Assembly (NCBI GenBank): GCA_041486085.1
Contig: JBGPKU010000008.1
Span: forward strand, 2,806-66,805
DNA length: 64,000 nt
Direction: 5' to 3'
DNA from: Candidatus Limnocylindria bacterium
Lineage (GTDB): Bacteria > Chloroflexota > Limnocylindria > P2-11E
Positions within the stretch are counted from its first letter, which is position 1. Every line of letters begins with the position of its first letter. Below are positions 48,456 through 64,000 of this stretch, in pieces. Under the pieces are notes generated by a model, which made no database searches, was not told where the DNA came from, and worked only from the letters and a program-made list of their open reading frames with translations. A program made the position numbers and the translations under genes.

Positions 48456-50321
48456 TTACGGCGTGCTGCTGTCTTCCTTCGACAGAAGTCGGTCGAAGGC
48501 GAGTCCGCTGGAGCCCTCGCCGCGACCAGTCTGGCGGCGCATGCCAAGCCAGACGAAGACGCGTCCGTCGAGCCAACGAGTCCGCTCGAAGGCTTGCGTG
48601 ACGCGCGTACCCGCGCGCGGTACTTCCTCATCAGGAACGAGGTACGCCTGCGGCGTTGGCTCGTCGAGGCCGGCGCGCAGCACTGACGTACGGGGCCGCA
48701 CCTTGATCGGTGCGTAGCCGTCCCCCTCGATCAGCCGCAGCAGGCCGGCGCGCTGGAGCTCGATCGCCCGCGTGCTCCCCTTCGCGCGCACGCCGATGAA
48801 GGGGATCCAATGCTCGGGGATCGTGCTCATGGCGTCGTAGCGGACCGTCGCGGCATTCTCGAGAGGTGGGGTCGACGGCGGATTGCCGGCCGCGTCGACC
48901 AGTCGCTGGTGGTAGGCGCGGGTCTCCCGCGCGGCGGTGCTGCCGGCGCGCGGACGGCCATCCGGAGCTGGGATCGTCTTCTCGATCCCCCAGACCATGT
49001 TCGCCATCTCGTCCCGAATGAACAGCACCTCCTCGAGCGGCCTGCCCTCCTGCACCTTCGGAACGACCGGCAGCAATACGAGGCTCGTGTCAGCCGCCGC
49101 CCCCGTGGCCCTCACGTTGACGGTGAACATCGCCCAGCGCTGCCAATCGTCGTCGGCGCCGGACCCGGCAGCGTCGATCCAGAAGCGCTCGCCGAAGGTG
49201 CTCGTCACGACTATGCCCTCGGCCTTCGCGATCGTGGCACCCGGCAGTGTGAAGGGAACCACGAACCAATCGTTCGAGTACACGAGGCCGAACTCGATGA
49301 ACAGCAGCTTGGCAAGATCGGTCGTGTCCGGACGGATCGCGCCGAAGTTCGTGTGGCCGTCCTCGATCGTCCACCAGCGTGGATGCGGCATCCCCGGATA
49401 GCGCACTGGCACCGGCAGCATCGTCCGGGCGGCCGCGATCTCCGGGTCGGATCCCCCGGTCGCGGCGCCCAGTGCCGGCGCGCTCGGGTCGATGTCGAAG
49501 CTATGCCAGTCGAGCGGACCGCCGTAGTACTCCTCGGCGGCGTAGGCCTTTTCCAGGTCCCCGGTACGCGCGGCGGCCGCGAATTGGTACTCGAGACGAT
49601 GGGAGCGCCATGCCGGATTGTCGTCGGTGCCCGGTTGGGCGAAGAGCCGGTCGACCCACGCAAGGAATTCGGCGGCGGCGACGTCGAGCGCCGGCTTGTG
49701 CGCATCGAGCACCGTGATCCCGTCGTACGCGTGGTGCGTGCCGGCGGCGCGCACGTAAGAGTAGAGCGCGCCGCCGTCCATGGCTCGTCCGCTTGAGGCC
49801 GCGAACGCCTGCCAGACCTCCACGTGGGCACAGACGGCGGCATCCTCGCGCCGCGCCGGATCCGGCGGGGTGAACGGGTACCGCGTCGTGAATTGGGATG
49901 CGTAAGCGCCGATCGGCTTGATGAGCCGCAGCCATCGACGTCCGAGTGCCAGCCGCAGGTCGAGCGCGGCCTTGTCGGTCCCGTTGAACCACCGCAGGGG
50001 CCTGGGCTGGACCTGCGCCTCGAGCGGTACGTTCAGGTCGAGCTCGGTCGCGCCGGCATCGCCAAGGCGCAGGCGCGTCAGCGGCGTGGTGGTGACCGCA
50101 ACGCGCGCACGCACCGGTGAGCCCGCGTCCTCGCCGTGCAGCTCGCCGGCCTGCCATTGCCGCGTCAGCATCCACAGGGCATCGCGTACCTCGCAGCGCA
50201 GAGCGCGCTCGAAGTTGATCGTCCGCGGGCGGCCCTCGAGCCGATTCCACATGGTGATGCTCGGATAGAGCCGGCCCTTGAGGGCCGCCTGAAGGTCCTT
50301 GATCGCGAGGCGATCAGCCAC
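48456..50321 (-). CDS. Giant-operon gene 5: 621-aa hypothetical protein
   Basis: GTG 50321 (VADRLAIKDLQAALKG...) overlaps the upstream stop by 8 nt, with GGGGAG about 11 nt upstream. The composition is balanced and Trp-rich (LWMLTRQWQAGELHGEDAGSP, PHPRWWTIEDGHTNFG, YSNDWFVVPF). I recognise no family. Confidence 0.8.
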   Translation of the reverse strand: MADRLAIKDLQAALKGRLYPSITMWNRLEGRPRTINFERALRCEVRDALWMLTRQWQAGELHGEDAGSPVRARVAVTTTPLTRLRLGDAGATELDLNVPLEAQVQPRPLRWFNGTDKAALDLRLALGRRWLRLIKPIGAYASQFTTRYPFTPPDPARREDAAVCAHVEVWQAFAASSGRAMDGGALYSYVRAAGTHHAYDGITVLDAHKPALDVAAAEFLAWVDRLFAQPGTDDNPAWRSHRLEYQFAAAARTGDLEKAYAAEEYYGGPLDWHSFDIDPSAPALGAATGGSDPEIAAARTMLPVPVRYPGMPHPRWWTIEDGHTNFGAIRPDTTDLAKLLFIEFGLVYSNDWFVVPFTLPGATIAKAEGIVVTSTFGERFWIDAAGSGADDDWQRWAMFTVNVRATGAAADTSLVLLPVVPKVQEGRPLEEVLFIRDEMANMVWGIEKTIPAPDGRPRAGSTAARETRAYHQRLVDAAGNPPSTPPLENAATVRYDAMSTIPEHWIPFIGVRAKGSTRAIELQRAGLLRLIEGDGYAPIKVRPRTSVLRAGLDEPTPQAYLVPDEEVPRAGTRVTQAFERTRWLDGRVFVWLGMRRQTGRGEGSSGLAFDRLLSKEDSSTP

Positions 50322-62658: not shown

Positions 62659-64000
62659 CTAGAACGCGCCGTGCGCGGCGAGGAACGCGCGGTGGGTGCC
62701 GAAGTCCACCCGCGGCTGAAAGACGCGAATGTCGGTGCCGCCACCCTTGTTGAAGAGGGAGAAGGGAGCGTCGAACAGCGCGTCCACCGGTCCGCCTTGC
62801 GCGGTCGAGAGCTCCTTGCGCTTCAGCTCGCCCGCGACGGTCTCGAAGAACGGCCACGTCGTCAGAGCCGCGGCGCCCTTGTCGTAGTACTCGATGCCCC
62901 ACTCCGTGACCGCGTAACGAACGGCGTTGGACGCGCCGGCCGCCGCGGGTTTCACGCGCTTGAAGCGGATCGGGTAGTGGACCTGGCGGGGCGCCGGGAT
63001 CTCGGCGGCCGTTTTCTTCAGGTTGTCGCTGAGAGGCTTGCTGTTCTTGGGCGTGTCGATCTTGGCGAGGTAGAAGGCGTCCTCGACCTTCGAGTGCAGG
63101 ATGAGGAACCCGGCCATGACGGCCTTCGGCTTCTTCTTCAGCTTTGTCGGGATCTTGGTGAAGTCGCGCGCCTTCGCGATCGAGTCGTATGCCAGGAGCC
63201 GGTGCCGGACGGCCGCCTTGTAGGAGCGCGCCACCGGGTCGTAGATCTTCACGTCGTCTTCGCTGTCGCTGATCACGGTCCCGGGCGCGATCGCGGCCGC
63301 GCCCCCGGCCATCAACGCGAGATGGACGGTCGCGAGCTGCCGGGCCAGGGACAGATGGCTCCCCAGCTCGTTGACGAAGTTCTTGTAGAACTTGAAGAGC
63401 GTCCCTTCCATACCGTGGCCGCCGAAGACAAAGCCCTTCTCGGATTTGTAGTTCCGGTCGCCCGCGGCGTAGACGAAGGCCCACTCCCCGGTCCAGTTCC
63501 CGGTCGGGCGGAAGGTTCGATAGAGCGGGTGGTTGAAGATGTAGGCCTGATCGCCGACCTGCAGGTCCTTGGCCGGCATCGCGACCGGGACCCTGGCGAC
63601 CGGGTTCTCTGTCGCTGCGCCCTGGCTCGCGAACGCCGCGTCGTACAGCATCGTCACGTCGAGGTAGGCCGCCGGCAGCTGCTTGAGGAAGGTGGAAGAG
63701 TTCTTCGCTTCGAGCAGCGCGTCGAGGAAGGTGATGTCGGCCACCACCGCGCAGTCCGTCAGGTTGCTCTTGCATGGGTCGCTCCTCGCGAGGAACAGGT
63801 CTTTGACCGCGGCGACCGGATCGACGATGCCAGCCGCCTTGAGCGTGAACGGCGTGTCGTCGGGATAGGGAGTCTTTGACCAGTAGGTCGCGCCGGCATG
63901 GTCGTTCGGTCGCCACTCGTCGTTGCCGGGGCAGTCGTCGGGGTAGCGGAAGTAGCCCTGGCCGTTCGGGTTCACCCAGATGAACTGCCGGCACACCGCC
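62659..64000 (-). CDS. Giant-operon gene 1 (as far as visible): at least 445-aa hypothetical protein, possibly 5'-truncated by the window edge
   Basis: The frame stays open to position 64000; the listed GTG 63996 may not be the true start. Sequence elements include DDCPGNDEW, SDPCKSNLTDCAVVADITFLDALL, IFNHPLYRTF, GEWAFVYAAGD and a Lys-rich patch KIPTKLKKKPKAV. No family was recognised. Confidence 0.75.
   Translation of the reverse strand, partial: AVCRQFIWVNPNGQGYFRYPDDCPGNDEWRPNDHAGATYWSKTPYPDDTPFTLKAAGIVDPVAAVKDLFLARSDPCKSNLTDCAVVADITFLDALLEAKNSSTFLKQLPAAYLDVTMLYDAAFASQGAATENPVARVPVAMPAKDLQVGDQAYIFNHPLYRTFRPTGNWTGEWAFVYAAGDRNYKSEKGFVFGGHGMEGTLFKFYKNFVNELGSHLSLARQLATVHLALMAGGAAAIAPGTVISDSEDDVKIYDPVARSYKAAVRHRLLAYDSIAKARDFTKIPTKLKKKPKAVMAGFLILHSKVEDAFYLAKIDTPKNSKPLSDNLKKTAAEIPAPRQVHYPIRFKRVKPAAAGASNAVRYAVTEWGIEYYDKGAAALTTWPFFETVAGELKRKELSTAQGGPVDALFDAPFSLFNKGGGTDIRVFQPRVDFGTHRAFLAAHGAF

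Follow-up and report, generated by a model that had tools for sequence, protein, structure and literature searches.

A horizontally mobile cassette of one exchangeable enzyme gene and four giant core genes in a Candidatus Limnocylindria bacterium, tentatively read as an enzyme-delivering particle

This work concerns a stretch of 64,000 nucleotides from a Candidatus Limnocylindria bacterium (Chloroflexota; assembly GCA_041486085.1, contig JBGPKU010000008.1, positions 2,806 to 66,805; hereafter the window), and more precisely the five long minus-strand genes, named g1 to g5, which occupy it from 48456 to 64000. The analysis indicated that these genes represent a single copy of a "1 + 4" cassette which spreads horizontally and is made up of an exchangeable enzyme gene followed by a four-gene core (g2 to g5), and that the locus is an ordinary member of its family. 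This family falls outside every kind of characterised system tested. We tentatively propose, with clearly less than even confidence, that the cassette encodes an autonomous particle which delivers or presents an enzyme, and which may resemble the Tc toxins in its way of working without being homologous to them. The five genes are as follows.

62659 to beyond 64000, minus strand: g1, with the C-terminal 445 of its 573 amino acids (aa) inside the window
59176-62652, minus strand: g2, 1158 aa
55841-59179, minus strand: g3, 1112 aa counted from an ATG
50314-55848, minus strand: g4, 1844 aa
48456-50321, minus strand: g5, 621 aa counted from a GTG

The core was clearly conserved across distant lineages. 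A scan of one genome per species yielded at least 562 loci, 80 of which were kept for analysis. The kept loci came from at least 13 bacterial phyla: Acidobacteriota, Actinomycetota, Pseudomonadota (including Nitrosomonas and Chelatococcus), Bacteroidota (including Chitinophaga), Chloroflexota, Cyanobacteria (including Nostoc and Leptolyngbya), Gemmatimonadota, Planctomycetota, Verrucomicrobiota, Eremiobacterota, Chlorobiota, Desulfobacterota and Bacillota. In every kept locus (n = 80) long enough to show them, g2, g3, g4 and g5 were found in constant order and orientation, with a core identity across loci mostly of ~40-60%, and the overlap of 4 nucleotides (nt) between g2 and g3 was present in 40 of 51 loci. 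This constancy strongly supports the view, put forward in the initial annotation, of a co-assembling multi-subunit machine with no assigned function. Conservation of gene order, which had been proposed there as a check on all five genes, indeed held for g2 to g5 and failed for the first gene, which is polymorphic. The closest relative for all five genes was found in a metagenome-assembled genome of Acidobacteriota (L003). Divergent homologous cassettes were carried by plasmids of Streptomyces, Rhizobium and Gemmatirosa and by haloarchaeal megaplasmids, and the plasmid copy of Streptomyces europaeiscabiei was flanked by tyrosine recombinases. Carriers of the cassette include diderm bacteria, monoderm bacteria and archaea.

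The variable part of the cassette is the gene that precedes the core. In 54 of the 73 loci evaluated, the gene directly upstream of g2 was on its strand, was 300 aa or longer and nearly always lay within ~40 nt, and the genes occupying this slot belonged to about ten unrelated families. The largest of these consisted of Nal1-type trypsin-like serine proteases with an intact His/Asp/GDSG triad, and this slot often contained two tandem paralogues sharing 25-48% identity, each with an intact triad, as at the following positions.

L071:3823-6584: tandem trypsin-like paralogues
L021:3480-6559: tandem trypsin-like paralogues
L064:3501-6580: tandem trypsin-like paralogues
L079:3379-6586: tandem trypsin-like paralogues

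The other slot families included subtilase, M64-like peptidase, tyrosinase, phospholipase D (PLD) and glyoxal/galactose-oxidase-like proteins, together with several families that had no match in Pfam. In the archaeon, the slot gene encoded a PhoD-like phosphatase, and that of Streptomyces longwoodensis a PG_binding_1 protein, the N-terminus of which resembled, by eye, that of the archaeal PhoD-like protein. Most slot enzymes had no signal peptide, as judged by eye. A homologue of g1 occupied the slot at only 2 of the 80 loci. In the window, g1 encodes a Cys/His protein with a weak Pfam match to Tgl (PF20085; E = 4e-4 to 6e-4, 19.5-20.2 bits, below the cut-off of 23.7), while its homologue in L003 gave no match, and sequence and profile searches found no relative of it in the PDB. 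Residues C150, C203, C210, H284, H322, D272 and D277 were invariant among the 16 homologues found, in line with a thiol enzyme, which g1 is accordingly predicted, on sequence, to be. Several of these homologues were on contigs whose lengths coincided with those of contigs bearing g2 homologues.

Within the core, g2 is the only protein assigned to a known family. It matched the Pfam family DUF6603 (PF20248) with E = 2.7e-127 and 425.9 bits, against a cut-off of 27, over model positions 1-501 of 502.

59626-61314, minus strand: DUF6603 domain of g2 (residues 447-1009, Pfam)

DUF6603 carries no assigned function in Pfam, and no mention of it was found in a full-text literature search; the RefSeq product name for g2 homologues is "DUF6603 domain-containing protein". 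Homologues were also present in Methanoperedens and Natronorubrum, and the Rhizobium variant, which retains the DUF6603 part alone, matched positions 405-1142 of the hidden Markov model. The AlphaFold2 model of g2 (mean predicted local distance difference test score, pLDDT, of 79.5) comprised an N-terminal helical domain (~1-230), an antiparallel beta-meander (~247-893) and a mixed C-terminal region, the beta-region amounting to ~650 residues of long antiparallel strands. Foldseek comparison of this model with the PDB and with the viral models of BFVD gave no credible fold match (TM-score <= 0.15) and nothing meaningful on the viral side; its top 50 matches were generic giant barrels and sheets such as ushers, LptD, SlpA and ApoB-100.

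Judging by sequence comparison, g3 is the most conserved protein of the cassette, with a mean column identity of 58-64% in homologue alignments. More than 4,396 homologues were found in a protein collection clustered at 90%, and none of the 120 matches listed bore a functional name. Its AlphaFold2 model opened with a beta-rich N-terminal domain and closed with an alpha/beta C-terminal one, with long helices and a hydrophobic helical hairpin between them, and found no fold match in the PDB by Foldseek (best E-value 2.1); the profiles of g3 and g4 found nothing in the PDB either. A hydropathy scan detected a strong hydrophobic stretch in g3 alone among the five products, as had been noted when membrane segments were first attributed to the 1112-aa product only.

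57215-57355, minus strand: hydrophobic helical hairpin of g3 (residues 609-655, 47 residues, hydropathy peak 3.19)

This hairpin, modelled as helices 613-630 and 635-664 and flanked on both sides by basic residues, was kept in 60 of 62 close orthologues. In S. longwoodensis, the hairpin region of g3 is replaced by an insertion of ~870 aa with FG-GAP/VCBS repeats. Rhizobium has both g3 and g4 divided into two genes, g4 at about residue 1100, and these splits mark domain boundaries. The segment with the highest conservation in the entire cassette also belongs to g3, at window positions 56580-56795 (residues 795-867, ...LLETNQKFIEAYMVGLNHEFARELLWREYPTDQRG.FRQFWD), and had a pLDDT below 50 in the monomer model; such conservation, combined with such a low score, suggests that this segment folds only at a subunit interface.

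The two last core proteins showed the same combination of deep conservation and isolation from known families. The N-terminal region of g4 gave weak coiled-coil-type matches, followed by a conserved motif, LLPxRLETRF, and g4 was retained at every locus of sufficient length; searches with the single sequence, with a profile or with 26 homologues scanned individually brought up no relative in Pfam or the PDB. The g4 homologue of Salinigranum has inserted regions relative to g4 and is named "BGTF surface domain-containing", an assignment that is a RefSeq product name alone. The Trp-rich g5 contains the motifs WNRLEGRPRT and RQWQxGEFxGEDAGSP, and its family amounted to 4,487 clusters at 50% identity with E <= 1e-3, of which 1,581 had E <= 1e-30. 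No Pfam or PDB relative of g5 was found, the individual scanning of 38 homologues in Pfam giving scattered noise. An archaeal g5 homologue ends in two LTD (lamin-tail) domains, and 13 of the 150 best g5 representatives were more than ~100 aa longer than the rest. In one of the twelve longer homologues read, the insertion resembled coding sequences annotated as "LamG-like jellyroll", by a weak tblastn match. Extra modules matching no recognised domain were also observed in the g5 homologues P0186, P0188, P0206, P0225, P0252 and P0327, either as C-terminal tandem repeats of ~110 aa with a GHAH(L/V)xVNG motif or as an N-terminal extension of ~400 aa with a helix-hairpin-helix-like motif. Comparison of core proteins with each other by hhalign (g5 with g3, g2 with g3) was negative as regards paralogy.

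Searches of all five products against Pfam, NCBIfam, PADLOC and PHROGs returned nothing other than DUF6603 and the sub-threshold TGL match, so that g3, g4 and g5 are without a match in any of these collections. PDB sequence and profile searches with g1 to g5 gave nothing beyond low-complexity helical or coiled-coil matches. The initial annotation had seen no recognisable family in any product, which holds true for g3 to g5 and has to be amended for g2. It had also reported that Walker A, HExxH and GxSxG motifs and N-terminal signal peptides were lacking; a regular-expression scan of the five products indeed found none of these motifs, and no signal peptide was seen by eye in any of the products. 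A match of the whole set to a characterised system, which was to have spoken against a novel machine, did not appear in the profile searches or in the Foldseek comparisons of g2 and g3. RefSeq names for the cassette proteins are "hypothetical" or "DUF6603 domain-containing", and a full-text literature search found no description of the cassette.

The genes around the cassette were compared using 148 neighbouring proteins from more than 60 loci, taking the nearest two or three genes on each side. They were distributed among 156 Pfam families, none of which occurred in more than three proteins, and flanks were thus unrelated between genomes. The 25 most frequent neighbour families comprised no defence family (restriction-modification, Cas, TIR, helicase), no secretion or lysis family, and no part of an extracellular contractile injection system (eCIS), type VI secretion system (T6SS) or phage tail; the association with defence islands or secretion genes that had been proposed as a check is accordingly not borne out among these families. 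No conserved downstream partner gene was found.

In terms of mechanism, an enzyme-delivering particle would operate as follows. The products of g2 to g5 would be made in the cytoplasm and co-assemble as one particle, and the gene before g2 would supply an exchangeable enzyme, carried or controlled by this particle. The core would bind or enclose the enzyme, the huge beta-sheet of g2 being a candidate shell. The particle, having neither secretion signal nor ATPase, may then escape from the producing cell through lysis or some other non-classical path. Adhesion or lectin modules on g3, g4 and g5, which vary between lineages, may recognise the target, the hydrophobic helical hairpin of g3 would insert into the target membrane, and a hydrolytic or oxidative enzyme would thereby be delivered or presented. 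In favour of this proposal are the conserved and coupled core, the polymorphic enzyme slot and the lack of energy or secretion parts, as well as the lineage-specific binding modules (FG-GAP/VCBS, LTD, the BGTF label, LamG-like), the hairpin and the mobility of the cassette. A wider version, in which g2 to g5 form an unrecognised, prokaryote-wide protein-delivery nanomachine, unrelated to Tc, contractile injection or secretion systems, that carries whole enzymes of 40-100 kDa, among them proteases, lipases, copper oxidases, phosphatases and cross-linkers, to other cells and whose targeting modules and payloads are swapped horizontally between bacteria and archaea, is a possibility that we regard as doubtful.

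Several observations weigh against such a particle. That the subunits form one complex, leave the cell, take up cargo and insert into a membrane is inferred, as is what the particle would target, and no conserved lysis cassette was found nearby. Loading is unsupported by the slot enzymes, as no targeting domain or peptide common to all slot families was found; a C-terminal domain of ~100 aa is indeed common to the tandem trypsin-like and subtilase-type slot proteins, and was rejected as a universal cargo-targeting domain because it is confined to the protease family. The slot enzymes (360-950 aa, some of them cofactor-dependent) are much larger than the cargo of Tc toxins, which crosses their channel unfolded. 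None of the upstream genes sampled encoded a nuclease, a deaminase or an ADP-ribosyltransferase, which are typical polymorphic-toxin domains. As for g3, its model is of moderate quality (pLDDT 68.7), its hairpin is missing from the Streptomyces, Rhizobium and archaeal variants and is therefore dispensable there, and, given its basic flanks, this hairpin could equally anchor the protein in the membrane of the producer itself.

Among known systems, the Tc (ABC) toxins of Photorhabdus, Xenorhabdus and Yersinia, the features of which are well established, offer the best-fitting logic. Like them, the cassette encodes very large subunits (~5,000 aa in total) with no signal peptides and no ATPase, shows patchy horizontal spread and an exchangeable toxic enzyme, and combines a large beta-sheet component with a hydrophobic helical element predicted to insert into membranes and with receptor-binding insertions that vary between lineages. 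By contrast, g1 to g5 gave no RHS/YD, SpvB or TcB match in Pfam or NCBIfam at E <= 1 and no TcA-type domain (VRP1, neuraminidase-like, TcB-binding) in the Pfam scan, and the top 50 Foldseek matches of g2 included no Tc or RHS cocoon. The toxic domain of Tc toxins is the C-terminal hypervariable region of TcC, freed by autoproteolysis in the cocoon, whereas the cassette enzyme is a protein in its own right, of much greater size, whose gene precedes the core, and the C-termini of g2 to g5 are conserved. The cassette moreover has four core genes instead of three and is also found in archaea. Membership of the Tc family was excluded in view of the lack of RHS, TcA, TcB and SpvB domains, the lack of a cocoon fold match and the location of the enzyme in a gene of its own.

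Other systems shared fewer features with the cassette. Like eCIS (PVC, Afp) and tailocins, it is an autonomous gene cluster with a patchy distribution in bacteria and archaea, including haloarchaea, and with exchangeable payload genes adjoining a conserved structural core, and like eCIS, which are released by lysis, its components are without signal peptides. Unlike eCIS and T6SS, it has no sheath, tube, baseplate, spike (VgrG/PAAR) or AAA+ loader detectable with Pfam and PHROGs, and four core genes compared with about 15-20 in eCIS. Encapsulins have their cargo gene directly upstream of the structural gene and co-transcribed with it, and sequester potentially harmful enzymes; the cassette likewise has its enzyme gene directly upstream of the structural genes, with sequestration of harmful enzymes being proposed. 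It differs from them by the lack of an HK97-fold shell family in the Pfam scan, by slot enzymes which share no C-terminal targeting peptide, and by a core of four giant unrelated proteins. The umbrella (Umb) particles of Streptomyces bring together proteins with trypsin-like domains, targeting modules of the lectin type and toxic activities that are polymorphic; UmbC bears twin-arginine translocation (TAT) signals and ALF repeats as well as a polymorphic toxin at its C-terminus, and the trypsin-like domains of UmbA are catalytically inactive adaptors (PMC11062931). Trypsin-like proteins and lectin themes are found in the cassette as well. It nevertheless has no TAT or Sec signal and gave no ALF-repeat match in the Pfam scan, its trypsin-like proteins keep their His/Asp/GDSG triad, and its large proteins are conserved and not polymorphic; Umb differs from it in every defining feature. 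Unlike a classical secretion or envelope apparatus, finally, the cassette has no signal peptides, no Walker A motif and a single hairpin, in g3 only. With regard to the candidates advanced in the initial annotation, the evidence agrees best with a toxin or translocation complex, neither PADLOC nor the neighbourhood lends support to an anti-phage system, and an envelope-spanning structure is disfavoured by the lack of signal peptides, the loss of the hairpin in variants and the occurrence of the cassette with all envelope types.

The main rival to a particle is nonetheless a role in anti-phage defence by abortive infection, which we consider unlikely. The core would then be a membrane-anchored sensor or cage that holds a dangerous enzyme (protease, lipase or nuclease-type PLD, oxidase, cross-linker) inactive in the cytoplasm, frees it upon infection and thereby kills the host. 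A conserved core with an exchangeable effector is indeed typical of defence systems, proteases and members of the PLD family often serve as effectors in defence, and the patchy, horizontally driven distribution across bacteria and archaea, with some plasmid copies located between recombinases, is in line with such a role, as are the cytoplasmic synthesis implied by the lack of a signal peptide on any product and the basic flanks of the g3 hairpin, as would suit an anchor whose two ends face the cell interior. However, the best match in PADLOC-DB v2, to LmuB (E = 0.5, 7 bits), amounts to noise, and no NTPase, nuclease or nucleic-acid-binding domain was detected in the cassette. Its surroundings also argue against defence, with no defence family among the 25 most frequent ones and no family in more than 3 of the 148 neighbours. 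Tyrosinase, copper-radical oxidase and PhoD are moreover not known as defence effectors, and the LTD, LamG-like and FG-GAP modules, together with the region labelled BGTF by RefSeq, point outwards and not to the cytoplasm.

The cassette may alternatively serve its producer as an intracellular or membrane scaffold which positions or activates the enzyme for envelope or matrix remodelling, developmental autolysis or cross-linking. The slot enzymes are indeed of the "exoenzyme" kind that remodels walls and matrices (transglutaminase-like, tyrosinase, oxidase, proteases, phosphatase, peptidoglycan-binding), and the g3 hairpin could tether the complex to the cell membrane. Yet a housekeeping role is not expected to be patchy, mobile and similar across diderm, monoderm and archaeal envelopes, nor to tolerate the swapping of chemically unrelated enzymes, and no envelope-biogenesis gene was a conserved neighbour; we hold this explanation to be quite improbable. 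A function for the carrying mobile element itself (transfer, entry exclusion, addiction) is very improbable: copies do reside on plasmids or megaplasmids of Streptomyces, Rhizobium, Gemmatirosa and haloarchaea, some of them between tyrosine recombinases, but many of the 80 loci lie on long chromosomal-looking contigs, integrases account for 2 of the 148 neighbouring proteins, no relaxase, type IV secretion or partition genes were linked to the cassette, and it was absent from IMG/VR contigs, a lone GenBank "phage" match being unverified. The remaining probability belongs to functions outside the readings considered here.

The GenBank record just mentioned (MT835531.1, L089) comes from a human faecal sample and is entitled "UNVERIFIED Bacteriophage sp."; this contig of 40 kb, with a GC content of 75%, has homologues of g3 and g4 at 31889-39370, and is probably bacterial and misfiled as phage. 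A phage origin of the cassette was rejected on these grounds, together with the lack of a match in IMG/VR.

As regards gene layout, the five minus-strand open reading frames described in the initial annotation were recovered at the same coordinates, 48456-64000, and its statement that no intergenic gap exceeds 6 nt also proved correct: the g1 stop codon (TAG) is followed by 6 nt and the ATG of g2, g2 and g3 overlap by 4 nt (ATGA), and g3/g4 and g4/g5 each overlap by 8 nt. The shorter products retained there for g3 and g5 (1112 and 621 aa) are favoured by homologue alignments over the mechanical open reading frames, which would extend to 1139 aa from an upstream TTG for g3 and to 729 aa for g5, the first 108 codons of the latter being Arg/Ser/Pro-rich and overlapping g4. 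GC content at third codon positions was 0.82-0.92 in all five genes versus ~0.68 for the window, which is the coding signature expected of a high-GC genome. This signature and the deep conservation led us to reject the explanation of the frames as shadow open reading frames, and disposed of the concern that they might not be real, conserved genes. The operon had been described as open-ended, of at least 15.5 kb. The five genes stand, and its upstream end could be fixed using the near-identical contig L001, in which the full g1 of 573 aa extends over L001:2257-3975, its start being ~380 nt past the end of the window, and is preceded by a gap of 151 nt and an unrelated membrane-protein gene. For this reason, g1 is the first gene of the operon, which is closed at five genes and ~15.9 kb. 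The upstream gene (L001:321-2105) encodes a hydrophobic protein of 594 aa, multi-pass by eye and with no Pfam match, which was not seen adjoining the cassette in other genomes. At the other end, a perfect hairpin lies where g5 (stop at 48456, minus strand) and a plus-strand open reading frame at 47348-48361 converge, between their stop codons; from its sequence, it looks like a terminator closing the operon, apparently a bidirectional one.

48397-48423, no strand: GC-rich hairpin of 11 bp, 10 of them G-C, perfect, with the loop CAAAA

Further downstream, the window contains an O-antigen-type export and synthesis cluster at 36471-44812, with two GT4 glycosyltransferases, an S-adenosylmethionine-dependent methyltransferase, Wzt (ABC_tran plus Wzt_C) and Wzm (ABC2_membrane); alpha/beta hydrolases come after it, at 44752-47347. 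The envelope glycan genes that had been noticed next to the operon are thus real, and their association with it is not, as they are not linked to the cassette in other genomes; because flanking genes are unrelated between genomes, their adjacency here is coincidental. Two other types of neighbour were recorded on plasmid-type variants. An RHS repeat-associated core domain protein is encoded ~1.7 kb upstream of the variant cassette of the S. longwoodensis plasmid and divergently from it (L086:1932-5249); it constitutes a second polymorphic-toxin locus in the vicinity, the presence of which may be coincidental. Pentapeptide-repeat proteins were found downstream of the S. europaeiscabiei cassette (L083:20718-22676) and upstream of that of Rhizobium lusitanum (L088:5976-6839), two occurrences being too few to judge.

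The cassette is widespread, in at least 562 species representatives and thousands of metagenomic lineages, with carriers that range from soil Acidobacteriota, nitrifiers and cyanobacteria to Streptomyces and haloarchaea. Its proteins g3, g4 and g5 represent three families of thousands of members with no Pfam or NCBIfam model, and defining these families would improve the annotation of very many giant genes now called "hypothetical". Cultured carriers exist, among them Chitinophaga jiangningensis DSM 27406, Kribbella antiqua, Chelatococcus asaccharovorans DSM 6462, Nitrosomonas oligotropha Nm45 and Nostoc sp. 106C, so that the function of the cassette is open to direct testing. If whole enzymes are indeed delivered or sequestered by the core, this would constitute a new branch of microbial warfare or immunity, and would provide, ready-made in nature, a modular platform in which both payload and targeting modules can be exchanged, comparable to those that are currently being engineered from Tc toxins and eCIS.

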